Shown here in pieces: positions 9,932-46,989 of a stretch of DNA of 64,000 bases. Made by a program: the position numbers and the translations under genes. Every line of letters starts with the position of its first letter. Positions within the stretch are counted from its first letter, which is position 1. The notes under the pieces were generated by a model. The model did not search any database. It was not told the DNA's origin and worked only from the letters and a program-made list of their open reading frames with translations. The stretch is from a virus: positions 1 to 64,000 of IMG/VR virus record IMGVR_UViG_3300044712_000538. One strand, written 5' to 3'.

Positions 9932-10294
9932 TTATTTATTTAAAGCTTGTTCTGCAAATCGTACCGCTTCAAACCATTGTGCTGGTGTTGGCATTCCGGA
10001 TCGTAGCCCTTCCTGCTCGGATAAATGAAGATGGACGAGCCTCATAAGTGCTTTCCGGATTTCGGATTCTCTTGGATCTTTTTGTATTTTGAACTTGGCT
10101 TCATGGCTGAAAACAACCGTGATCCGTCCGCTGGCAGTTTCAGCGTATAGCTTCCCAACTTCATCCCTCCACCACTCCAGAATATCATTGTCTACGTCCT
10201 CCAGCGTAAACGGACATTGTAGTGCATACTCCACCCCATAGATTCCAACGCTCGGATCTCCTTGGTCGGTGACATAACAAATTAAGTTGCCCAT
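9932..10294 (-). CDS. hypothetical protein
   Basis: 120 aa; GDPSVGI motif. Confidence 0.65.
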   Translation of the reverse strand: MGNLICYVTDQGDPSVGIYGVEYALQCPFTLEDVDNDILEWWRDEVGKLYAETASGRITVVFSHEAKFKIQKDPRESEIRKALMRLVHLHLSEQEGLRSGMPTPAQWFEAVRFAEQALNK

Positions 10295-10387
10295 ACATCA
10301 TATTTTAAAAGTCTTGAAATCATGAACATTGTCTTACAGTAGATCGGAGATCGATATATACTCATTTGAATCCGAACATCGTCGTAC

Positions 10388-10591
10388 CTACTCATCCTGT
10401 GCTTCATTCCTGAGGTGTTGGGTGTTAAGAATTTTGACGCTATAAGTGGCCATGGAAAGAAAATCAAGCCCTTCCTGCCTTCTTACCTTGGCCTTGATAG
10501 TTTCCATATCGTCGTTCTCATCGCAGCGGATTTTTGTTGTGCCGGAATATGATCCGTAAACAACACTTACTGTGTGAATTACCTGTGCCAT
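10388..10591 (-). CDS. hypothetical protein
   Basis: 67-aa ORF within the operon. Confidence 0.55.
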   Translation of the reverse strand: MAQVIHTVSVVYGSYSGTTKIRCDENDDMETIKAKVRRQEGLDFLSMATYSVKILNTQHLRNEAQDE

Positions 10592-33654: not shown

Positions 33655-36600
33655 ATGCCAGATTGGAGAGAACAATTACTTTCTGATATATCCAAGATAA
33701 AAGACCGGGACGCTGTATTGAAAAAATATCCTCAGTTGAAAGGGGATAAGAAAATGCTCCAGTCCCTTTACTCTTGGAATAACGCAAAAGCATCTGGCAT
33801 CCCGCCTACGGATCTTGATGAAATGTATCCGGAGGTAAAGTCGTTTCTGATCCAGCCCGATGCTGCTCCGGCTCCGCAGCCTGGCGCTACCGTTCCTCCG
33901 CAAAAAACAGTTCCGGTAAAGCCGGTCCAGACTGTTCCGGCACCGGCAGCAAATACCCCGAAACCATTTCAGCAGCTTGAAGCCTCTATTCAAAAGCATG
34001 CTACTATCGCCAAGGCTATCCCGGAAAAGGGATGGGGCGAAGATCTTACCAAAAAGATACTCGGCGGTATCTACCCGAATGTGGGAAATACAAAATCTGC
34101 GCAGCATCGGGAAATGATGATTGCCGAGGCCGACAAGGCTCTTTCTGAAAAGAAGTCGCTGATCGAAAAAACGAAGCCGCTGATTGATGAGGTAGCGAAA
34201 TGGTTCTCGCAGGATTACCAGACCGCAAAAAAGAAATACACGGTTGACGGTACTGACATGGGTGAGATCCGGGAAGACGTTGTGAGGGCCGAAGCCCGTA
34301 ATTGGGCAAAGCGATACGGCGGCGGCTCCGGCGTTGAAGAGATCTTGTTTGCGTCGGCCCTTGGCGCAATTCAGGTTGAGCAAGTAAAGCCGAAATATGA
34401 GGCAGAACTCAAAAGCCTGTATAAGCAGAAGTACGGGAAAGACATGCCGACTGAAAAGGAAGCAGATCTTTTCCAGAATGCTATCGTATCTGCCGCGAAG
34501 GATCAGGTAAACAAGCAGATCGAAAAATCCAGCCAGGAATTGAAGTTGAAGGTATCCCAAACATGGGATGAGCAATTCCGGAAGCAACTGGATGATTCGG
34601 CAAAGCGGTTTGGCTCCGATTCTCCTGAGTATAAAAACCAGTTTGCTCAGTCCGTTGCCGCAATAGGAAAGCTGGAGAAGCAATGGCGGCAAAAGGAGAT
34701 CGCCAGAATCGAGCGGATCAAGTCCGAACTGGAAGCTGGTTTGAAGAAAAAGATTGAATCCTTCAATGCTGAGGAGCAAATGAGGATTGGTGCCATATCG
34801 GACGAGGCATACAAAAAAGCATCTCAGGCATATTCCGAAGCAAAAGGCGAGAAGAAATACCGCGAGGTTGCTGCCGCCAGCGACTTTTTTGGGAAGTCCC
34901 AACTGAACATTGGATTTAATAGGGCGCTTACCGGCCGGCTCCTTTATGGGGTGGCCAGCCTTGGCGATTACCTGGCGAGCGAAGGCTACCAATCGGCCGC
35001 GATTGACTGGATGCGTTCCATGGCTACTACCGGGGGAGAGCTGGACGTTCCGGACCTGAAACTCGGGTTCGATCGGAATCTGGCCATGGCCCTTGCCACA
35101 AGGACCGGTGGCGGTATTGGCTCGTCTGCCGTGCCCATGGGAGCCGCCATGCTGACTATGAATCCGCTGGCCGGAGCCCTTGTTTCCTATAAGATGGAAA
35201 CGGCGATGATGGAGGCCGACATATGGAAAGAGCGTATGATGGCTGGAGATCCTGAAGCAAAGCAAAAGGCCGATAAGGCTGGCGCGCAGACCGCGATACT
35301 CCTGCCCCTTTATGTGCTTGAAATGGACCGCCTTTTCGCGGGCATGAAGAAGGGTGGATGGGTGAACAAGGCGCTGAACATTTATGCCCCGGAACTGGCC
35401 CAGGAAGTCCCTACGGAATACTGGCAGCAGTATCTACAAGCAAAGTCCTCCGGGTTTAAGGGGGATTTTGCTGATTTTGTTGCCGAGGACAAGGGTAACA
35501 TTGCCCTTGAAACCGCTATCGCCACCATCGGAATGTCCACCGTATTTGCCTCCATGGGCAAAAGCACGGAAGCCGTTGGCCGGGCTCTTGGCCCCAAGGC
35601 AAAGGATCAGGCTATTATCTCGCTGGCGCAGCGGACGCAGATGGCCCCGGTGGATTTTGTTCCTACTCCATCCCCGTATAAAGGTCCGGACAATGACCCG
35701 GCCGCTCCGGCTGCCCCGGCCGGCACCGCCCAGGCGGTAGATCCTCAGGCCGCCACACCCTCAGTATCCCCGATTACCATGGTCAATGCCGCCTTGGAGC
35801 AGGCATGGATGAACGGGGAAATGAGTGATGAGCAGCTTGTCGATGAGAAAAAGCATGCTGAAATGATCCTTGCCAAGCAGGATGAACTCGCCAAGCTTGG
35901 TCTGGAGCCGGACATGATCCGGCACTATATCGGCCTGCAGGCTGAAATGGTCTATCTGCAAAACCAAATGGCTGCCGCCAAGGACCCGGTCCTGCAGGCG
36001 AAATTTGAAAAGGACATTGCCGCGATTCAGACGCAGATGGCCAAGGTGATCGACGACAAGATCGAGGAAACCATATTTTCTGTTACCACCCCCTTTGGAG
36101 ATACCTATACCGCGACCGAGAAAGAATTGGATGAGATCATGAACAACCCCCTGTTTGGGGCCCCGGAAGATCTTGTCATTACCCCGATCAAGGGTCGGCT
36201 TACCCCGGACGAACAAAAGGTTGCCGATGCCTTAGCCGGGGCGAAGCTTCCGGACGGCCTATCCGACATGAGCGTTGAGAAGCTGGTCCAGAAGTTTGCC
36301 GGGTCGAAGGATTTCAATGAGCAACGGGAAGCGATAAAAATGTACCGGGATCAGCTTAATGATCCCCTGGGCCCAACTCCCCGGAAGCAAATGATCGCCG
36401 CTTTTGGGCAAGATCTTGCCGACCAGGTTGCCCCTCTTCCCTTTGGAGAGGTTGACAAAAAAGAGGTTGGTGAAAAACAGTTCAAAAACGTAACCGAAAG
36501 GCTAAAGTCCCGAGAGCCAGAAAGCTTTGAGGAAGAGGTTCTGCAAGGGTTCCTGCGTGATCTCCGTTTCTCTTCTGAGGACTTTACTCGGTATGCCGGG

Positions 36601-39600
36601 TTTGGCGGTAATTCCCGCTTGACGGGTGATAAAATTGGCGGCCGGGAAATGCGCCAGTACGCAATGAAGCGCCTCCGAAAAAAGTCGGAAGGCGGCATTC
36701 CCATTGACAAATACGTTCTCCAGCTTGCCGAAAAATGGGGCATTCCTCAGGGACAAGAAACGGACTATATCAATACGGTTATTGACCTGATATTGGAGCA
36801 TCCGGGACAGGCCAGCGTTATTTCTCGGCTGGAAGCCCTGCAGAGCGGTGCCAAAACACAGGAAGAGTATGATGCCTGGCTAGAAAGAAAATATGGAAAT
36901 GCGCAGGCCGCGAAGGATGCATTGGATGCCATGGATGACGACCTTACCGAGGATGTAAATGATGTAATTGAAAAGATTGACCAGATTACAGACGAAGAGG
37001 CAGAAAGCATCGCGGATGGAGCGATGAACAACTTCATCGACGAAAACGGGAACATCGATCTCTCCGCGATAAAGACATTCCTTGCCAGCGATGAGTTTAA
37101 CGCAATGCCTGAAAAGGTAAAATCAATCATAAAGGAGGTTACAAATGGACTCGACCAAGCTGAAACAGACACTCAGGATGATGGCAATACAGATAGCAGC
37201 GAAGAAGAAGACCAAGACGAAGAAGAAACGCCGGAAGAGTTAAAAGACGCCTATCAGACCGAGAACTACAATGATCTGGTGAAGGCGTGGGAAAGCGGAA
37301 ATAAGATATATGCGGTATCGGAACAAGATGAGGCCCCAACCCCTGTTACCAGTTGGGAAATGCTCAATAACTATCCCCTTGATGCATTGTGGATTGTTGA
37401 CCAGCAGGCCGAATCTCAATCCGAAAATGTTGTTGCTCCCAAGAAAGAAACCAAGGCTAAGGTCCGGCAGGAAACAAAAACTAAGCTGGCTGATGAAACA
37501 AAAAAGGCGCTGGATGACTTCCTTGATGCCTTTGATGAACTTGGCAATCTTGGGTTTGCATATGATCCGGAAGAGCAAGCCAAAAAGCAATTCAAGCTTT
37601 ATACTGCTGGCGCAAAGTTTGTTGCCGCCATGGCCAAGCAGGGCATATACCAGTTTAAGGATATGGTCCTTACCCTTGCAGAAAAGATGGGCGAAATACC
37701 CGGTGAACTTTTCCAGGCATTGAAAAAGGCATATGCTATGGCCTATGCTGATGATGAAACGGGCCTGATGGAAGATCCGAAGACATTGCGGACGCTTACG
37801 CTGGAAGACATTCTTGCGGAAAAGGATGATAGCAATGAATTATCTGGAATCGAAGCATTTAAAGAGGCTTTCCATAAGAATCTTTTTTCATTATGGGCTG
37901 ATTTATCAATAAACCCTGATGCAAATCCCCGTCCATCAAACATTATTGACCTTCGGAATATGGCCGTTGAAGCAAACTGGACTGGTGAAAACGGACTACC
38001 GGCTACGGACAATGAAATATTTGAGGCGGTTGAATCTGTTTTGATCAGATTTTCAAGGGAAATTGTTGCCATGTCTAAGGATAACCAAAAGGTTATGAAA
38101 AACCTGATGACGCTTTATAAAGTTCAGCCAACAATTTCAATGCGAGATAGCGACAGGGTAATGCTCCAGCAATACTCTACGCCTATACCATATGCATACG
38201 CTGCTGGCGTGTGGATGAAAAACCAGAACAAGTATCTTGAACCAACGGCCGGAAATGGCCTCCTTACGGTCGCCTTGGACCCGTCTAAGGTCGATGTGAA
38301 CGAAATCGACAAGACGCGCTTTGATATGCTGGCCGATCAGGGATTTTCATCAGTATCAAGCCGCGATGCCCTGGAGGGTTTTTCTGGAAAATATGATGGG
38401 ATAATTGCCAATCCACCGTTTGGGTCAACGGATAAAATAACCACCCAAGACGGGTATCCTATATCCGAACTCGCGCAAAGAATTGTTTATGAATCGTTAA
38501 AAACGCTGACTACAGACGGGAAGGCATCATTTGTCATAGGTGGACATACAGAATATGACGAAAAGGGGATCATGAAGGGGCGGGATCGCTTTTTCTTTAA
38601 CTACCTTTATGACAACTTCAATGTTGTCGATGTTATAAATGTAGCCGGAGATCTGTACGGCAAACAAGGAACCACATACCCTACCAGGCTGATTCTTATC
38701 GACGGAAGAAGGAATGTTGAAGGATCGCCAAGGAAAGAAACTCGGCATGCTCCGATGAAGTCCGTTAAAGGATTTGAAACGGTCGGACTGCAGGCTCCAG
38801 ACGATGCCGTTATATCCAGCTACCCCGAATTACTTAACCGTGTCTTAAAACCTAAAGACTATGGCCAACAAATTGATATTCCATCCGGAATGGACACCGA
38901 CAAGGGATCTGGCAACAATATTCCTGGCAACCGGCCCGGAGGACGCAACCAAGGAGGATCTGGTGGAAGAAATACTTCCGGCACGGTATCGAAACCTGGC
39001 AAAGGAGTATCTCAGGGAGGGGCACGACCTCCAGTATCTGGAAACCTATTTGCCGGAAGCGACGTTCAGAAGCCATCTGAGTCCAAATCAGGTCGCGCAG
39101 GAAATAATGGTAACGCCGCAGTTTTTGAGGGCCAAGGAAATGCTTTACCTCCAGGAGCCGGTCCCCGGCCTGCAGTTAGACCGGAAGTTGGCCGGACAAA
39201 TTTACAGGGACGCAACGCTCCTGACGCTGGTGGAAGCTTTGCAGGAGTTAGAAATGTAAGCATCGAAAACCTGTCTTCCGAAAACGTAGAATACATCCCG
39301 TCTAGCAATATGCAGTTTGAGGTTGGTACGGTTATCCCGCCAAAGATGGCGGTTGAAGTGTATCGGCATCAGGACATGCTTATTGAAATGTATGGGAACC
39401 TTGCCGATTTTGTTCAATCTGAATTAGAGTACGAGCCGGATGAATTTGCTGCTGCTTTTTCTTCCGAACAGGTTGATGCTCTTGCAATGGCCATACATAA
39501 GGCCAAGATGGGATCTGCAATGATTATCGGTGATCAGACTGGTGTTGGTAAGGGCCGGATCGCTGCCGGCATGGTCCGGTGGGCAGTAATTAACGGGTAT

Positions 39601-42600
39601 AAGCCGGTATTCATTACCGCAAAAGCAGATCTTTTTAGCGATTTCTGGCGAGATCTTAAAGATACCTTTAACGCACACCTTCGGTACTTTATCGTTAATA
39701 ATCAAACTCCGGTTACGGAATATCACCTTGATGAGAGTGGTGATGAAGTTCCTGTTGATATATTCCGTTCACCAGAGAAGTCAAATCCAGACTACAAGAA
39801 GATTCTTTTTAATGAATCGGAAAATTCGCAAGATTCATTTGATTTTGTCATGGCTACCTATTCTCAGTTTTCTGGAAAGAAAATGGCCGACAAAATAGGG
39901 TTCATGAAAGGGATGCTCAAAAGAGGATTCTTCATAATGGATGAATCACATTGGGCATCTGGAGATTCAAATACTGGAGAATTATTCAGGGAAATGACTT
40001 CAAGCGCCGATGCCGGGTTGTTCCTTTCTGCAACATTCGCAAAGAGGCCTGATAATATGCCGGTATATGCTACCAAAACGGCAATGAAGGATACTGGGCT
40101 TGATGATGAGGCTCTTGCTGACGCGATATTGTATGGCGGTCCGGCGCTGCAGGAGGCAGTTGCGGCGCAGCTTTCTGAAAGCGGAGAAATGATCAGGAGG
40201 GAGCGCGACTTTAAGGGTGTTGAGATAGATTATATCCCTCTTGACAAAGAAGGAGAATCTTGGGGGGTAAAAGACCAGAGCGAATACCATTGGGATGTTT
40301 CCAGGAGAATGTCTGAAATGATGATGGACATTATCCATTTTCAGAGGCATCACATTCGTCCGTATCTTGATGGTATCCGCGAGGCGGTTAAGGAATCTAA
40401 TCCAGAAATGAGTATAACCAATACTCCGTTTGCCTCAAAGGTTTTCAATATCAATAAGCAAATGCTTCTTGCCCTAAAAGCTGACGCATCGGTTGACTTG
40501 GCTATTAAGGAATTGAAAGAGGGGAAAAAGCCTGTAATATCCCTTTCTTACACAATGGAATCATTCCTGTCTGAGGAACTTGCCGTTGGTGATGTTGTCC
40601 CGAGGTTTGATTTTTCAAGTATCCTTATAAAGGGGCTTGAAGGAACTCTAAAAACAAGGACCCAAAATGGTTGGGGGAAGGTAACCACATCGAAAATAGA
40701 TATTGCGTCGCTCCCTGAGGAGTCCCAGGCCGCATACTGGTCGCTCGTTAAAAAGATTAAGGACAATACCATTGACTTGAACGCATCGCCTATTGACCAT
40801 ATAACGCATCGTCTTGAAAAGGCTGGATATTCTGTTGGCGAACTTACTGGCCGGCAGACAAGGCTTGTTCCGGTTGAAGATGGAGGATGGGCAATGACGA
40901 AATTCAAAAAGAGGAACAAGATAGATCTGGTTAAGAAATTCAACTCAGGGAAGATTGATGTAATTATCATGAATCGTTCCGTGGCTCAGGGTATTTCAAT
41001 GCATGCGTCATCGAAGTTTTCGGACCAGCGGCAGAGGGTGATGATTATCACAGAGCCAGAACTTGACGTAAATGATGAGATCCAAAAGCGCGGTCGTATT
41101 GATCGGGTTGGACAGGTTGTAAGGGGGGCGTATAGGTATCTTGTTTCATCAATCCCCGCCGAGCAGCGATTGATGATGATGTTCAAAAAGAAAGTAGCCA
41201 GCCTTGATGCAAACGCAAAGACAACGCAAACAAACAAGGCCAATGAAGTGAAGGTTGTTGACTTTTTGAATAAATACGGTGATCAGATTGTTGTTGATTA
41301 CTTATTTGAGAATGCTGCACTTAATGATGAAATACTTGATCCGCTAAAAATATCAGATCAGATCTTTTCTGGCGAACGCGATTACAAGCCTCAGTCCGGA
41401 GATGCCCATAAGGTAACAGGAAAGGTTGCGCTGCTTTCTCCAGAAAAGCAAAAGCAGTTTTACGATGACATTTCAAATCGGTACACCGATTTGATGAATA
41501 GCAAGCTTGCTACTGGAGAGTGGGATCTTGAATCAGAGGTAATGAAGCTGAACGCAGAAAAGATCTCTTCAAATATCCTTATTGAGGGAAACAACAATAG
41601 TCCTTTCTCGCGCGACGTTATTCTTGATGAATATGAAATTGACGTTCCGCGCGTTCCGATAAAAAAGGAAGAGTTAATCAAAATGGTTAATGACGAAAAA
41701 GCCGGAAATGATGTTGCTGATTATACCGCTGAAATAATAGACAGGGTTGAGGAGTTTTATGAAAAAAGGAAAGAGGCCATAAAAGAAGATATTACAAAAA
41801 ATCTACTTGAAAAAAGGATACTGATTGTTAATACGATAAGGGCAAAAATGACTGAGAAGAACGCCCCGGCCGAAGAGATTGAGCGTGCGGTAAAAGAGGC
41901 CGAGGAGAGAAATGATTATGAAAGGGAGGAGAAGATAAGGGCTGAGTTTGCGAAAGCTAATAGCTACAAGGACAGGCTTACTAGGTTTGCTAGGTTTTTC
42001 TACCCTGGAAGATCTGTCCGGTTCCCGGTAGGAGAAGGGAAGAACATGGTTACGCACCCTGCCGTTTTTGTTAAGATCTCGTTTTCGGAAAAAGGAATAT
42101 CCGAAAGCGATAGCATATACAGGCTTTCTCCGTCTGGAGTAAAGTTCCATTTTGCCGTCGATAGCGAGATTGTAAGAGATCAGCGTCCGGCTACATCAAA
42201 CGATTGGTTGTATGAAGCCATGATGAACTCTCAAATGGACTTTGAGAATAACCTTGATAATTGGGGCAAGTTTTCTGGAGGCTTAAGGAGGAAGGCGAGC
42301 ATCGTTTCTGGAAACCTTTTGAAGGGGTACGGAACTGTTAAGGTAGGGCGCGTTGTGAACTTTACTACGAGCGAAAATGATATTGCGAAAGGAATATTAA
42401 TGCCGTTTGGCGCTACTGCTGGAGAAGGGTTTAAGGGTAAAAGAATTGTTCCAATATCAAAGGCCATATCTATCCTTTTGGGACAGAGGGGTGCGGTATC
42501 TCTTGGCAAAGATGGTTTTTCTCTTTCCTTTTATGGGAAAATAATGAGCATAATCGTTCCTAAGTCAAGGAAAGAGGGCGGCGTTATATTCACCAATAAG

Positions 42601-45600
42601 GAAATACTCGACATAACCGGACCGTTTTATCAGAATGGAGGAAGCATGATTCAAGAGGTAAACGGTGAATCTTCTGCAAAAAAGGTTGGAGAGGTTCTTA
42701 CAAAATTGGGTTTTACCGCCGTAATTGATGAAAAACACCTTCCCAAGTCAGATGGCAATATAAGCAAGCTTGTTTCGGCTCCGGCTGGCCAGCAAGTAAT
42801 CCCATCAAGGGTCCCGGAAGAGTATATTTCAAGTACGCCCATTTCTCTTGAAGACATGGGTATTGGCCCGAATGATACTGCAGGGGAGATTGTTGACAAA
42901 ATGATTTCCTATGGCGGTCCGTTTACCGAGATCTTGAAGTTCATACGGGCTCTTCCTGGATTTAAAGACATAAGCATCCAGCAAGTTGAATCGCTTGACG
43001 CAAACCATCCAGTTAGGAAAGTAATTGGTGCGCTCGCAAGCGATGCATCCGGCGTTTACTTCAATATGAAGGACCGTCCGGACACAATCGTAACAGAAAT
43101 AGCGGGGAAGCCTATACAGGGTATTGTGGCTATTAATCAGGGTAAAACCAATAACGCATACTATACCCTTACGCACGAATTGCTTCACTTTTTGACCATC
43201 GATGGCATCGACTCAAAAGATCCTGAGGTCAAAAAGAAGCTTAAAAAGCTGGAGGACATTTACCTGTTTATGAGGTCTAAGCGGGATCGCTGGCTGATGG
43301 ATGCCATGGAATCCTCTTCTCAGCTTCCTGGCGGGGACAAAATGCCTGGAAAGAATGTTGAACTGGCTGGCGCGCAAAAGGAACTGGATGGAGCCCTGAG
43401 GGAACTGGAATCGGCCAAAAAGGCTTTTGATGCAAAGAGGAAGGAACTGGATAAAGGAATCGTTGCTGACCAGACAGATCTTTTTGGAAACCGGAAGAGC
43501 GATACCGGCAACTCTCTTTTTGATGAAAGGGCATCTCAATCAGGCCGCGATGCTGCCATGAAGCCTTTCCGCGACCGGCTGAACAAAGCTGAATCGGAAG
43601 CCAACCGTCTTCGGAAAAAAGTCGAAGGTCTTTTGGCTTCTGGCGGCGTGAGCCAGGGCGATCTTTTCTCGGCATTCGGATTTGGTCTGCAGGAATCGTA
43701 TGGCTTTACCAATTTTAGGGAATTTATGGTCGAATTGCTTATGAACCCGATGTTCCGGGCAAACATAAGCAACATAGCGGCACGGTCCGAAATGGAATTT
43801 GCGAATGCAATATGGGCTGGCGCAGATCCGGACAAGAGGTCTATTTTGGCAATGATTAAGGACTATATCCGGTCCCTGTTCAAATCCATTTTTGGAAAAT
43901 CATCTGTAAACCTTAACTCCCCGCTGGTTGATCAGGCGGTTACGCTGGCTGAGGATATTTTCTTCTCCGGGGAAAGCATTGTTGACCGGGTGTACGATAC
44001 CGAGGCGGGGAACTACTTTACCATATACAGTAACTACAATTCTGGACGATCCAGCCGTGGACCAGCATCGAAAACACTTTCTTTCTTCCCCGGATCTGGT
44101 GGCCAGGATACCGATTTCATCCTCAAAAACTATATCGCTCGGAAGGTTGTCGAGGGCATATTGTCGGATGCTACCATTTTGAATGTAGTTCAACGGCAGG
44201 GGATGGACCCGGTACAGGCAAAACAGATCATTGATCAGTACCGGAAGAATCCTCCCGGCAAAAAGGCAATGGCGAAGCTTTCTACGTTGGCCAGGGCTGA
44301 AAAAGTTGGCCCGGTAGAAGATGGCGAAAAGGAAAGGAAGCTGAATCGAATGATACCGGTATTTGATCCAAAGGGTATAGAAAGGATCAATGAGCATGCA
44401 ACAAGGTATTTGCCGAAGTCAATGAAGGTAAGCATGGAAGAGGCAGACAAGTTTATTGTCAATATCCCGACCCAAGATCTGAAGGACTTTGCAACCAATG
44501 TTCATAGCGTCCTGAACACCCTTCCGATTGACGTTCAGACTGCAATACGGATCGCGGCAATCCTGCGCATGCAGAGCGAGGTTACTTTGCTCCGGGCTCA
44601 GGGCGATCACGCCCAGGCTGATCGGGTTTCAGAAGATAGTGCCGAGATCTGGAATCACATGACCCCGCTTTCAACCGAATTGGGCCGGGCCGTGAATCTT
44701 TACAAGCGTCTTATCTCCGACCCGGCATTCTCTAAAATGTCCATCCAAAACAAGTTCAGGGCGTTTGTGGCTATGGCCGAAAAGGCTATTGGCCGGAAGC
44801 TTACAGATGGGGAGAAGAAAAAGTTGTTTGAAATGTTCCAAGCATGGGACGCGGCCCCGGACGGAATTGGAAAGCAAATTGCCATGGCCAAGATTATGGC
44901 CTACATCAATACGCTCCGGCCGATTAATTTGTGGGATCTGCTCACAAACATATGGTACTCAAAAATCCTTTCGGGACCGGCGACGCACTTTACTAACCTG
45001 TTCAGCAATATCTTCAACGGTCCGATGGAAATGTTTGTCCAGTCGTTGGCCATTGGGAAGAAATACAAGTCCAATCCTGGGAAAATTGCCTTTGATCTGA
45101 CCAAGGCTTGGTTCTCCGGGATAAGAAAAGGGTATGTTGAATCGAGGCACATTATGATTTATGGCCCGACGAAAGAGGAATCCACCAAGCTATACCAGAA
45201 TCACCTTATGGAGGAACTGGACTGGACGAAGGCGAATATTCCGTCATTCTGGAAAAAAGTCCTGAACTCGCCAGTCCTCCTATCCTTTAATCCTAAGATC
45301 TTGAAGTATGTCGGCCGGATGCTGGCTGCAGAGGACGCTATGCTCCAGAATGCCGGTGAGCATTCTTTTGCTGAGGTTCTGGCGTATCTGGAGGCCGCGA
45401 AGTCAAACAAGGGTGCCGACAAGAAGCTTTTGAAGCAAATGGCTCAGGCCATGGTGGCCAGCGATTCCATTTCATATGCCAAGGCGCAGCAGCAGGCATT
45501 AGACGAGGCCGTTGCCGCGCTGGATATGCTCCGGGATATGAGGTCCGAGGCTGAAATAGCTGGTAACATGGCTGAGGTAAAAGCTATTTCCAGGGAGATT

Positions 45601-46989
45601 GCCATGTGGGATCGCCAGGTTAAGGGGAAGCATAAAAACATTGCATTCCGGAAGCGGGTGTATGAGATACTGGAGGCCAAGGCTACCGAAACAGAAGAGG
45701 GTGCCCGCATTATGCATGACGCGGCCGCAAGGGCTTCAAAGGTTACATACAATTTCCCTCCAAAAGGATTGTTTACCAGAACGATGTACGATGTTCTAAT
45801 CTATGCCAGCGAGAAAGTCCTTCCGTTCAAGTTCTTTGTTCCGTTTGTCCGGATTGTTTCCAATCTGGTTGACAATATGATCAATTACTCGCCTGCAGGA
45901 TTTGTAACGCCGCTTATCTCTTATGCCAAGCCAAGCGCAAATACCACAAAGGATGAAAAGGGAGCAAGGCCTTTAACCGATGAAGAGCGTACGGAGGTAA
46001 TGATTAAGGCGATGATCGGAACTATTACATGGGTATTCCTTTACAATCTGGCCGTCCCGGACGGGGACGATGACGAGCCGTGGTTTTCTATTACCGGTGC
46101 TGGTCCATCCGACCAGGCGAAGGTATATGAGGCCCAAGAAACCGGCTGGAGGCCATACTCTATCCAGACAAGGGATGGAGAAACCATATCCTACAAGGCT
46201 ACTCCGTTTTTCGCCCTTCTTGCTTCCATTGGTGCCATATCCGATGAAATGAAGTTTGGCAAAAAGGATATATCCGAGAAGGATATATGGGACAAAATGG
46301 CTATCTCGGCATCTGGATTCGTAAAGTCTATTTTTGATAACTCTTGGATGCAGGGGCTTGATGAGTTGCTTAATTCTGCCAAAGCAGAAAACCGGTTTGG
46401 TAAGTTGGATTTCAACGTGGTTGACAAGGTTACAAAAAAAGGTGTTGATGTGGCTGGCGCTTTTGTTATGTCTAACCTGTCGAAGCAGATCGTAAGGATG
46501 CACGACCGGATTACCGAAACGCCAATGAAGAAAGCAGAAACGCCATATGAGCGAATTATAACCAACATGCCGATTGTTCGGAATGTTCTTCCGCATGAGA
46601 TAACCAATGTTTGGGGAGATCCTGTTGTGAACGAAACATATCTCGGGTTCCTTCCCCTGAGGGCCCAGGTAACAGAAAAGGATGACGTAATCTCCCTGCT
46701 GGTTAAAAACGGCGTTTGGATTGGCCGACCCAGGAACAATAAGGAGATTTATGACGGTGATGTACTTCGCCCGCTGACCAACGATGAATATTACAGGTAT
46801 TACGTTCTGGCATCACAAAAGCTGAAGTCCATGCTGAATGACCGGGAAACTATTGAGTACATAACCGAAATGGACCGCGAGGGAAATTCGGACGCGATAA
46901 AGACATTCATTCAATCTCGCAAGCAGAATGCCAACCAGGAAGCATTTATGGAACTGTTTGGCAATAGCGGAATAAATTCAGAGTGGTAA
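33655..46989 (+). CDS. giant DarB-like polyvalent virion protein: N6-adenine MTase + Strawberry-notch SF2 helicase + zincin + helical C-terminal domain
   Basis: QQYSTP, LEPTAGNG, NEID, ANPPFG (about 38160-38710); GDQTGVGKGR, DESH, LSAT.AKRP, QKRGRIDRVGQ (about 39500-41200); HELLH at 43174. Confidence 0.9.
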   Translation: MPDWREQLLSDISKIKDRDAVLKKYPQLKGDKKMLQSLYSWNNAKASGIPPTDLDEMYPEVKSFLIQPDAAPAPQPGATVPPQKTVPVKPVQTVPAPAANTPKPFQQLEASIQKHATIAKAIPEKGWGEDLTKKILGGIYPNVGNTKSAQHREMMIAEADKALSEKKSLIEKTKPLIDEVAKWFSQDYQTAKKKYTVDGTDMGEIREDVVRAEARNWAKRYGGGSGVEEILFASALGAIQVEQVKPKYEAELKSLYKQKYGKDMPTEKEADLFQNAIVSAAKDQVNKQIEKSSQELKLKVSQTWDEQFRKQLDDSAKRFGSDSPEYKNQFAQSVAAIGKLEKQWRQKEIARIERIKSELEAGLKKKIESFNAEEQMRIGAISDEAYKKASQAYSEAKGEKKYREVAAASDFFGKSQLNIGFNRALTGRLLYGVASLGDYLASEGYQSAAIDWMRSMATTGGELDVPDLKLGFDRNLAMALATRTGGGIGSSAVPMGAAMLTMNPLAGALVSYKMETAMMEADIWKERMMAGDPEAKQKADKAGAQTAILLPLYVLEMDRLFAGMKKGGWVNKALNIYAPELAQEVPTEYWQQYLQAKSSGFKGDFADFVAEDKGNIALETAIATIGMSTVFASMGKSTEAVGRALGPKAKDQAIISLAQRTQMAPVDFVPTPSPYKGPDNDPAAPAAPAGTAQAVDPQAATPSVSPITMVNAALEQAWMNGEMSDEQLVDEKKHAEMILAKQDELAKLGLEPDMIRHYIGLQAEMVYLQNQMAAAKDPVLQAKFEKDIAAIQTQMAKVIDDKIEETIFSVTTPFGDTYTATEKELDEIMNNPLFGAPEDLVITPIKGRLTPDEQKVADALAGAKLPDGLSDMSVEKLVQKFAGSKDFNEQREAIKMYRDQLNDPLGPTPRKQMIAAFGQDLADQVAPLPFGEVDKKEVGEKQFKNVTERLKSREPESFEEEVLQGFLRDLRFSSEDFTRYAGFGGNSRLTGDKIGGREMRQYAMKRLRKKSEGGIPIDKYVLQLAEKWGIPQGQETDYINTVIDLILEHPGQASVISRLEALQSGAKTQEEYDAWLERKYGNAQAAKDALDAMDDDLTEDVNDVIEKIDQITDEEAESIADGAMNNFIDENGNIDLSAIKTFLASDEFNAMPEKVKSIIKEVTNGLDQAETDTQDDGNTDSSEEEDQDEEETPEELKDAYQTENYNDLVKAWESGNKIYAVSEQDEAPTPVTSWEMLNNYPLDALWIVDQQAESQSENVVAPKKETKAKVRQETKTKLADETKKALDDFLDAFDELGNLGFAYDPEEQAKKQFKLYTAGAKFVAAMAKQGIYQFKDMVLTLAEKMGEIPGELFQALKKAYAMAYADDETGLMEDPKTLRTLTLEDILAEKDDSNELSGIEAFKEAFHKNLFSLWADLSINPDANPRPSNIIDLRNMAVEANWTGENGLPATDNEIFEAVESVLIRFSREIVAMSKDNQKVMKNLMTLYKVQPTISMRDSDRVMLQQYSTPIPYAYAAGVWMKNQNKYLEPTAGNGLLTVALDPSKVDVNEIDKTRFDMLADQGFSSVSSRDALEGFSGKYDGIIANPPFGSTDKITTQDGYPISELAQRIVYESLKTLTTDGKASFVIGGHTEYDEKGIMKGRDRFFFNYLYDNFNVVDVINVAGDLYGKQGTTYPTRLILIDGRRNVEGSPRKETRHAPMKSVKGFETVGLQAPDDAVISSYPELLNRVLKPKDYGQQIDIPSGMDTDKGSGNNIPGNRPGGRNQGGSGGRNTSGTVSKPGKGVSQGGARPPVSGNLFAGSDVQKPSESKSGRAGNNGNAAVFEGQGNALPPGAGPRPAVRPEVGRTNLQGRNAPDAGGSFAGVRNVSIENLSSENVEYIPSSNMQFEVGTVIPPKMAVEVYRHQDMLIEMYGNLADFVQSELEYEPDEFAAAFSSEQVDALAMAIHKAKMGSAMIIGDQTGVGKGRIAAGMVRWAVINGYKPVFITAKADLFSDFWRDLKDTFNAHLRYFIVNNQTPVTEYHLDESGDEVPVDIFRSPEKSNPDYKKILFNESENSQDSFDFVMATYSQFSGKKMADKIGFMKGMLKRGFFIMDESHWASGDSNTGELFREMTSSADAGLFLSATFAKRPDNMPVYATKTAMKDTGLDDEALADAILYGGPALQEAVAAQLSESGEMIRRERDFKGVEIDYIPLDKEGESWGVKDQSEYHWDVSRRMSEMMMDIIHFQRHHIRPYLDGIREAVKESNPEMSITNTPFASKVFNINKQMLLALKADASVDLAIKELKEGKKPVISLSYTMESFLSEELAVGDVVPRFDFSSILIKGLEGTLKTRTQNGWGKVTTSKIDIASLPEESQAAYWSLVKKIKDNTIDLNASPIDHITHRLEKAGYSVGELTGRQTRLVPVEDGGWAMTKFKKRNKIDLVKKFNSGKIDVIIMNRSVAQGISMHASSKFSDQRQRVMIITEPELDVNDEIQKRGRIDRVGQVVRGAYRYLVSSIPAEQRLMMMFKKKVASLDANAKTTQTNKANEVKVVDFLNKYGDQIVVDYLFENAALNDEILDPLKISDQIFSGERDYKPQSGDAHKVTGKVALLSPEKQKQFYDDISNRYTDLMNSKLATGEWDLESEVMKLNAEKISSNILIEGNNNSPFSRDVILDEYEIDVPRVPIKKEELIKMVNDEKAGNDVADYTAEIIDRVEEFYEKRKEAIKEDITKNLLEKRILIVNTIRAKMTEKNAPAEEIERAVKEAEERNDYEREEKIRAEFAKANSYKDRLTRFARFFYPGRSVRFPVGEGKNMVTHPAVFVKISFSEKGISESDSIYRLSPSGVKFHFAVDSEIVRDQRPATSNDWLYEAMMNSQMDFENNLDNWGKFSGGLRRKASIVSGNLLKGYGTVKVGRVVNFTTSENDIAKGILMPFGATAGEGFKGKRIVPISKAISILLGQRGAVSLGKDGFSLSFYGKIMSIIVPKSRKEGGVIFTNKEILDITGPFYQNGGSMIQEVNGESSAKKVGEVLTKLGFTAVIDEKHLPKSDGNISKLVSAPAGQQVIPSRVPEEYISSTPISLEDMGIGPNDTAGEIVDKMISYGGPFTEILKFIRALPGFKDISIQQVESLDANHPVRKVIGALASDASGVYFNMKDRPDTIVTEIAGKPIQGIVAINQGKTNNAYYTLTHELLHFLTIDGIDSKDPEVKKKLKKLEDIYLFMRSKRDRWLMDAMESSSQLPGGDKMPGKNVELAGAQKELDGALRELESAKKAFDAKRKELDKGIVADQTDLFGNRKSDTGNSLFDERASQSGRDAAMKPFRDRLNKAESEANRLRKKVEGLLASGGVSQGDLFSAFGFGLQESYGFTNFREFMVELLMNPMFRANISNIAARSEMEFANAIWAGADPDKRSILAMIKDYIRSLFKSIFGKSSVNLNSPLVDQAVTLAEDIFFSGESIVDRVYDTEAGNYFTIYSNYNSGRSSRGPASKTLSFFPGSGGQDTDFILKNYIARKVVEGILSDATILNVVQRQGMDPVQAKQIIDQYRKNPPGKKAMAKLSTLARAEKVGPVEDGEKERKLNRMIPVFDPKGIERINEHATRYLPKSMKVSMEEADKFIVNIPTQDLKDFATNVHSVLNTLPIDVQTAIRIAAILRMQSEVTLLRAQGDHAQADRVSEDSAEIWNHMTPLSTELGRAVNLYKRLISDPAFSKMSIQNKFRAFVAMAEKAIGRKLTDGEKKKLFEMFQAWDAAPDGIGKQIAMAKIMAYINTLRPINLWDLLTNIWYSKILSGPATHFTNLFSNIFNGPMEMFVQSLAIGKKYKSNPGKIAFDLTKAWFSGIRKGYVESRHIMIYGPTKEESTKLYQNHLMEELDWTKANIPSFWKKVLNSPVLLSFNPKILKYVGRMLAAEDAMLQNAGEHSFAEVLAYLEAAKSNKGADKKLLKQMAQAMVASDSISYAKAQQQALDEAVAALDMLRDMRSEAEIAGNMAEVKAISREIAMWDRQVKGKHKNIAFRKRVYEILEAKATETEEGARIMHDAAARASKVTYNFPPKGLFTRTMYDVLIYASEKVLPFKFFVPFVRIVSNLVDNMINYSPAGFVTPLISYAKPSANTTKDEKGARPLTDEERTEVMIKAMIGTITWVFLYNLAVPDGDDDEPWFSITGAGPSDQAKVYEAQETGWRPYSIQTRDGETISYKATPFFALLASIGAISDEMKFGKKDISEKDIWDKMAISASGFVKSIFDNSWMQGLDELLNSAKAENRFGKLDFNVVDKVTKKGVDVAGAFVMSNLSKQIVRMHDRITETPMKKAETPYERIITNMPIVRNVLPHEITNVWGDPVVNETYLGFLPLRAQVTEKDDVISLLVKNGVWIGRPRNNKEIYDGDVLRPLTNDEYYRYYVLASQKLKSMLNDRETIEYITEMDREGNSDAIKTFIQSRKQNANQEAFMELFGNSGINSEW
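38861..39259 (+). CDS. probable nested gene (+1 frame) inside the giant protein linker
   Basis: 132-aa L/E/A-rich globular-looking ORF spanning the G/S/N-rich linker between the MTase and helicase domains. Confidence 0.55.
   Translation: MANKLIFHPEWTPTRDLATIFLATGPEDATKEDLVEEILPARYRNLAKEYLREGHDLQYLETYLPEATFRSHLSPNQVAQEIMVTPQFLRAKEMLYLQEPVPGLQLDRKLAGQIYRDATLLTLVEALQELEM

Follow-up and report, generated by a model that had tools for sequence, protein, structure and literature searches.

A long open reading frame (ORF) that lies wholly inside a larger gene, in another frame, raises the question of whether it is a gene in its own right or a stretch left open by the composition of the protein encoded around it. 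The question arises in a 64,000-nucleotide stretch of viral DNA (here, the window; positions 1 to 64,000 of IMG/VR record IMGVR_UViG_3300044712_000538), where a 4444-codon gene for a polyvalent (DarB-like) protein contains a 132-amino-acid ORF in its +1 frame. An earlier note on this DNA had quoted the sequence of the ORF, placed it between the methyltransferase (MTase) and helicase domains of the giant protein and proposed that it is a real gene co-inherited with them. The ORF is present as quoted at 38861–39259, in the +1 frame of the gene at 33655–46989, and the positions of the Pfam matches to MTS on one side and to AAA_34 and Helicase_C_4 on the other confirm its placement; it spans main-frame residues about 1736–1868. 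We conclude that 38861–39259 is very probably a genuine protein-coding gene, referred to here as X, that is overprinted in the +1 frame on the spacer between the two domains. The same DNA would be read twice, yielding in the main frame a hydrophobic-poor tether and in the +1 frame an acidic, folded and conserved protein whose ATG and stop, themselves conserved, sit at the spacer edges.

Selection on the two frames of the spacer

The significance of the nested ORF comes from comparative data and not from its length. We fetched 80 IMG/VR loci that span the MTase, the spacer and the helicase, with 32–37% identity to the window's protein, and determined the fraction of differing sites at each main-frame codon position in 32 independent locus pairs (63–97% amino-acid identity). 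The fractions at positions 1, 2 and 3 were 0.321, 0.209 and 0.163 in the spacer, 0.094, 0.071 and 0.360 in the MTase, and 0.104, 0.065 and 0.421 in the helicase. The third position of a +1 codon falls on main-frame position 1; the spacer therefore evolves like a gene that is read in +1. Along a gap-free clade of 36 sequences, the most variable position flips from 3 to 1 at the nested ATG (main codon 232) and back at the nested stop (main codon 383). Where the conserved end of the MTase runs into X, all three positions show almost no diversity. Such near-invariance is what would be expected of a true double constraint.

Variants were also classed by their effect in both frames, as a rate per possible change. 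Within X, the rate was 0.365 for changes that are nonsynonymous in the main frame and synonymous in +1, 0.076 for those that are synonymous in the main frame and nonsynonymous in +1, and 0.089 for those that are nonsynonymous in both. The earlier note had proposed a frame-specific comparison of nonsynonymous and synonymous rates (dN/dS) in related giant genes, and the dN/dS analogue within X is about 0.24 for the +1 frame as against about 1.2 for the main frame. The pattern is reversed in the flanks, where changes that create +1 stops are freely tolerated. From these rates we infer that the +1 frame carries purifying selection and that the main-frame sequence of the spacer drifts neutrally, with only its openness being kept. 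Overlapping non-coding elements can also lower synonymous rates, and a constraint on the nucleic acid itself (a structure of the RNA or DNA, or binding sites within the spacer) might thus take the place of a +1 protein; nothing specific points to such an element here, and it would not explain a strict three-base period with a wobble-like class, the absence of +1 stops, the conservation of start and stop, or a confident protein fold built on covariation from 28–49 sequences. We regard this explanation as extremely improbable.

A spacer between MTase and helicase is present in all 120 listed homologues of the giant protein (80–538 amino acids, median 120); these spacers are rich in G/N/S/P/Q/T, poor in hydrophobics and barely alignable. 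Over the spacer, each of the 80 IMG/VR loci has a +1 open run of at least 110 codons (median 157), and the median for the +2 frame is 33. The nested ATG is kept in 81/81 loci, with a main-frame stop in 0/81 segments, and an intact nested ORF with a conserved ATG occupies the same place in all 91 related loci (80 from IMG/VR, one from Bacteroides phage BS-TP4 and 10 from bacterial genomes). Stops in the +1 frame of close homologues are what the earlier note expected to find if there were no gene; in the related loci, the frame is open over the spacer in 91/91. Its proposal of a real gene in the next frame, co-inherited with the MTase–helicase module, is supported by these open frames together with the selection, and its heuristic that the linker resembles the off-frame reading of a real gene was right in substance.

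The +1 translations resemble members of a single protein family. In 81/81 loci they open with Met and an aromatic or aliphatic pair (MTYY, MIYY, MKIYY and MEQKYY; MANKLIF in the window), and within clades they share long motifs such as KYYA...L.IT.HPG.LT..D..NL.RM and, at the C terminus, ELP..EWD-stop. Between the main-frame spacers of these loci there is almost nothing in common. One X copy (L065:1357–1902) has undergone a tandem expansion, with about four copies of an EETYRNQ-like unit, that lengthens both X (182 amino acids) and the main-frame spacer (159 codons) and leaves both frames unbroken.

For the lineage of the window itself, the only close relative of the giant protein is P0003, which is 72% identical and available as a protein only; its DNA was not found among viral, genome or metagenome contigs. 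We used the window's codons to ask which single base change yields each amino-acid difference. The only gap in the spacer alignment affects two residues at the start of X, and an Asn-Glu junction there could still supply an ATG. Single position-1 changes account for 36 of the 53 amino-acid differences in the spacer (68%) and position-3 changes for 0. In the two flanking domains (MTase and helicase), single position-1 changes account for 102 of 276 differences (37%; Fisher P = 3e-5 versus the spacer), and elsewhere for 32%. Most of the position-1 spacer changes (31/36) would be silent in +1 (null 65%, P = 0.004), and in about 70 sliding windows of 120 residues the top two position-1 fractions (0.67 and 0.62) both fall over the nested ORF. 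Judged by these differences, the window lineage appears to show the same position-1 bias as its relatives.

Chance, frameshifting and initiation

The simplest alternative is an ORF that arose by chance. A hydrophobic-poor spacer hardly yields +1 stops, because a +1 stop needs a T at main-frame position 2 (an F/L/I/M/V codon), and the 'globular' composition of the product would then be a by-product of G/N/P/S codons. The window's spacer is of low complexity, G/N/S/P-rich, with 13–14% F/L/I/M/V, and basic (isoelectric point (pI) 10.6). With the main-frame amino acids fixed and codons resampled from the usage of the giant gene, 1.1 +1 stops are expected over the nested stretch and 29% of trials have none; when the whole gene is reshuffled, its longest +1 run reaches 136 codons or more in 48% of cases. 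The giant gene has +1 open runs of 146, 136, 134 and 120 codons, three of which (120–146 codons) lie outside the nested stretch, and three runs of at least 130 codons are unusual under whole-gene synonymous shuffling (P = 0.012). The runs at 37283–37721 (146 codons, with an ATG ORF at 37310–37723) and 44696–45098 (134 codons) were considered as further nested genes and rejected, as they lack position-1 bias in the comparison with P0003; they are probably due to chance.

Composition accounts for part of the openness of the +1 frame and not for all of it, because +1 stops are fourfold below a calibrated resampling null. This null, built as for the window, was applied to 15 lineages (at ≤70% identity, one representative per lineage): 9 +1 stops were seen in the spacers versus 38.6 expected, and 0/400 resamplings were as low. 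The same procedure gave 788 expected stops for the flanking domains, where 771 were seen, and 189 for the +2 frame of the spacer, where 202 were seen. Beyond this deficit, a chance ORF leaves unexplained the conserved ATG and stop, the rotated codon-position pattern, the position-1 bias in the window lineage and a predicted local distance difference test (pLDDT) score of 90 for the product, and the other long +1 runs carry none of these signals. We consider chance to be a highly unlikely explanation, and one that is already largely refuted.

Several points weigh against reading 38861–39259 as a gene. The length of the ORF is explained by spacer composition, and the ORF alone is not beyond chance. 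The window's X peptide (P0001) found nothing in a word-based homologue search, and a hidden Markov model (HMM) built with the window left out gives it only 4.7 bits, which is not significant; both results, and the lack of a Pfam or PHROG homologue, would also suit a chance ORF. Selection in the window lineage is deduced from protein differences because the DNA of P0003 was not obtained. No family or fold match was found that would point to a function for X. Because the leave-window-out HMM fails, the membership of P0001 in the X family rests on position, frame, boundaries, the hhalign P value and the AlphaFold2 fold. The peptide shares position and frame with X copies in homologous host genes, aligns with 45 positional X homologues in hhalign (P = 3.1e-4, probability 39.5%, 105 columns) and is 23–25% identical to the L002/L004/L011 clade in the alignment.

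If X is a gene, its product is probably a polypeptide of its own, for which ribosomes start internally on the giant-gene mRNA, at the A-rich leader that precedes the nested ATG. This leader is A-rich like other gene starts in the window, and like them it has no Shine–Dalgarno sequence; the resemblance, which had been pointed out in the earlier note, holds and is soft evidence only. A +1 stop lies 4 codons before the nested ATG in the window and 1 codon before it in several lineages, and thus there is almost no room for entry into X by frameshifting. Programmed +1 frameshifting would yield X only as a C-terminal extension, in an MTase–X fusion ending at 39259. It would fit the position of X on the same strand in the +1 frame and the absence of a promoter-like box, a Bacteroidetes-type TAnnTTTG −7 box not having been found on the + strand upstream of the nested ATG. 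It would also fit two proteins that carry X in frame behind other domains: in P0192 (411 amino acids) X follows a PAD_porph deiminase-like domain, and in P0139 (258 amino acids) it follows a polyvalent-protein domain whose usual place is upstream of the MTase. Each half of P0139 corresponds to a different part of giant genes, and this protein may be a deletion variant; both are known as database proteins without DNA context, and they are either true in-frame architectures or deletion or frameshift variants. Against frameshifting stand the nearby stops, the retention of the ATG in every locus, the start of most called homologues at that Met and, in the L002 and L004 lineages, an AAGGAG sequence 8 nucleotides upstream of the nested ATG. 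We therefore regard it as very unlikely as the route to X.

The product, its carriers and its locus

X is very likely a small, acidic folded protein of about 15 kDa. AlphaFold2, run on a 28-row alignment, predicts the window's peptide with a mean pLDDT of 90.4 and a predicted template modeling score (pTM) of 0.85, in a layout of strand 4–6, helix 15–21, strand 23–25, a long helix at 31–52 and five further helices. A copy from another clade (L041), near-identical to that of BS-TP4, is modeled with a pLDDT of 91.7, and the two models share an N-terminal beta–alpha–beta–long-helix layout in a comparison of secondary structure only. The peptide of the window has a pI of 4.84 and a net charge of −8; all members of the family are acidic, with a median pI of 4.3 (range 4.05–5.5) and net charges of −6 to −24. 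M1 is the sole invariant residue, with Y5 or, in a second alignment, L15 nearly so, and so few conserved residues point to a role in binding or structure and away from enzymatic activity.

Searches for known relatives of the product gave the following. Pfam and PHROGs returned chance-level matches only, for the window's peptide and for sets of 28 and 49 family members; at E ≤ 1, the 28 peptides gave weak, single-member, chance-level Pfam families, with no TnpV among the matches listed (25 of 36). The best hit of a sequence profile search of the PDB had an E value of 0.49, Foldseek with two X models found no PDB match at E ≤ 1e-3, and a fold search of the viral predicted structures in BFVD found no match. 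A wide structural search (VIA) with two X models reached best Z scores of 3.0 and 3.5, and the ESM Atlas search, with a best score of 0.82 and low recognition, was uninformative.

A profile of 28 +1 peptides, searched against 1.84 billion predicted proteins, matched 86 cluster representatives, 33 of them at E ≤ 1e-10. Most of the matched called proteins are 100–150 amino acids long, start at the same Met and are 30–94% identical to nested ORFs of the fetched loci; gene callers have called the X ORF many times without its context. No free-standing copy of X was seen. In Bacteroides phage BS-TP4 (PQ571277), X is nested in a single giant coding sequence (CDS), gp3 (HMM E = 1e-31), and the annotation has no nested CDS under this stretch. 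The copy lies at L081:2330–2692, about 10026–10388 of PQ571277, with its nested ORF at 2348–2692 (about 10044–10388), and the phage is cultured, with B. salyersiae BG8 as host. A tblastn search of phage genomes yielded only BS-TP4 and two distant Acinetobacter phage records; the distant homologue in Acinetobacter phage MD-2021a (26% identity) is without the nested ORF. At 10/10 loci from bacterial genomes, X lies inside a giant ORF and keeps the same frame relative to it, the carriers including Phocaeicola massiliensis DSM 17679, P. coprophilus, Alloprevotella, Prevotella, Rikenellaceae and one Bacillota metagenome-assembled genome (L107). On the chromosome of the type strain P. massiliensis DSM 17679 (NZ_KB905472.1, L102:3501–3845), X is 97% identical to the L041 type and presumably sits in a prophage or integrative element.

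The features of the locus are collected in Table 1. Within a single giant chain, the host protein combines an N6-adenine MTase with a Strawberry-notch-type SWI2/SNF2 helicase, with Pfam matches to MTS (5.6e-6, amino acids 1561–1637, NPPF included), AAA_34 (3.7e-11, amino acids 1935–2195) and Helicase_C_4 (4.5e-19, amino acids 2380–2550). More than 1200 homologues, of 2.4–7.8 thousand amino acids, bear polyvalent-protein Pfam domains, and the host gene belongs to the polyvalent-protein class with a DarB-like methylase–helicase dyad. At 38780–38860 of the window, and in equivalent stretches, the last MTase motif (ELYNR-type) overlaps the X leader and first codons. On the minus strand, 33679–35433 is free of stops for 585 codons, antisense to the 5′ part of the giant gene. 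The stretch was found in only two DNA runs, both of them rhizosphere metagenomes that contain every sampled word of it and may be its source.

Table 1. Features of the giant gene and of the nested frame (positions in the window)
Feature	Position	Strand	Evidence
Host gene, 4444-codon polyvalent (DarB-like) protein	33655..46989	+	ORF list, Pfam, homologues
Methyltransferase core (MTS, NPPF)	38335..38565	+	Pfam, aa 1561–1637
TAA stop in +1 frame, 4 codons upstream of nested ATG	38846..38848	+	sequence
A-rich leader AAAACCTAAAGACT preceding nested ATG	38847..38860	+	sequence; soft evidence only
Nested +1-frame gene X (very probable), 132 aa, ATG to TAA	38861..39259	+	ORF, selection, AlphaFold2, hhalign, charge
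Main-frame spacer of giant protein, aa 1734–1867	38854..39255	+	same DNA as X
Helicase, AAA_34 + Helicase_C_4	39457..41304	+	Pfam

Possible functions and known systems

Polyvalent proteins and the methylase–helicase dyad of P1 DarB have been described (Iyer et al. 2017, PMC5512222), and the host gene of the window is like the P1 DarB class in its MTase and SWI2/SNF2 dyad and its giant multidomain architecture. The words linker, overlapping and frameshift are absent from that paper, and the nested gene is not part of its description. By analogy with P1 DarB (PMC5512222), the host protein may travel inside the virion and be delivered alongside the DNA.

For X itself, we see roughly even chances that it is a non-enzymatic binding partner of the MTase–helicase dyad. 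It might serve as a chaperone, or as an acidic lid that controls the dyad or holds it inert in the producing cell or in the virion. We favor a partner role because X is strictly inherited together with the dyad, would be coupled to it in translation, has the conservation pattern of a non-enzymatic protein and is acidic, and by analogy with the Rz/Rz1 and Synechocystis pairs compared below. Co-folding of X with the MTase (amino acids 1440–1735) and with the N-terminal part of the helicase (amino acids 1868–2400) scored 0.00, which gives no verdict either way.

The next most likely reading, possible but rather doubtful, is that X acts as an acidic decoy, like Ocr or ArdA, against a host defense enzyme. 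Ocr and ArdA are small, acidic, non-enzymatic DNA-mimic antirestriction proteins of mobile elements. The X family is likewise small and acidic, as its median pI and net charges indicate; no sequence or fold match to them was found (PDB sequences, Foldseek against the PDB and the wide structural search), and the copy in the window is only mildly acidic (−8). Also conceivable, with similarly modest prospects, is that X is an ancient independent gene that once lay between separate MTase and helicase genes. The two enzymes would have become fused by reading through X in the other frame, making the linker frame the derived one, and X would now act in trans as an indispensable subunit, perhaps an acidic lid resembling DNA that gates the injected MTase–helicase or disarms host restriction. 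If true, such an X-first origin would define a new and very widespread counter-defense protein family that is hidden from annotation.

Giant polyvalent proteins are among the commonest cargo of phages and conjugative elements in gut and soil bacteria. A whole family of X proteins has very probably been missed in them, even though gene callers made the 86 context-free cluster representatives, and every annotation that we inspected treats the X stretch as a linker. The MTase–helicase dyad probably has a third component, which is relevant to any mechanistic or structural study of it, and BS-TP4 on B. salyersiae BG8 and the element of P. massiliensis DSM 17679 are cultured carriers of X. More generally, what looks like a 'disordered linker' in a large viral protein can be another gene's neutral shadow, and this affects how disorder and low complexity are read.

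Nested out-of-frame genes are a known kind, exemplified by Rz/Rz1 and by the overlap of the hepatitis B virus spacer with preS; in the literature searched, we found no publication that describes this nested gene family, its host or its breadth. The polymerase spacer of hepatitis B virus overlaps preS/S. As at the X locus, a disordered tether between two enzymatic domains, tolerant of almost any sequence, coincides with a constrained functional protein in the other frame; unlike there, the overlapping gene of hepatitis B virus encodes a membrane envelope protein, and the virus type and the proteins are unrelated. The lambda spanin genes Rz/Rz1 resemble the X locus: in a double-stranded-DNA phage, one gene is contained completely, start and stop included, in a larger gene that it overlaps in the +1 frame, and the two products are expected to cooperate. 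The pair differs in that there is no relation in sequence or fold, that X would be cytoplasmic, acidic and folded and not a lipoprotein, and that the host frame of X is reduced to a neutral spacer of a 4444-amino-acid multidomain protein. Rz/Rz1 has also been given as a parallel for 'genes-in-genes' in a study of intragenic out-of-frame translons of Synechocystis (slr0489, slr1079 and slr1082), in which both frames were found by experiment to be translated and the products to interact (bioRxiv 10.64898/2025.12.20.695498). Those translons belong to another gene family, are chromosomal and come with no mention of a methyltransferase or helicase, whereas the translation of X is predicted from sequence; they share with X a long internal out-of-frame ORF in a bacterial-type gene, and by analogy they support the hypothesis that X is a partner of the protein in which its gene is embedded.

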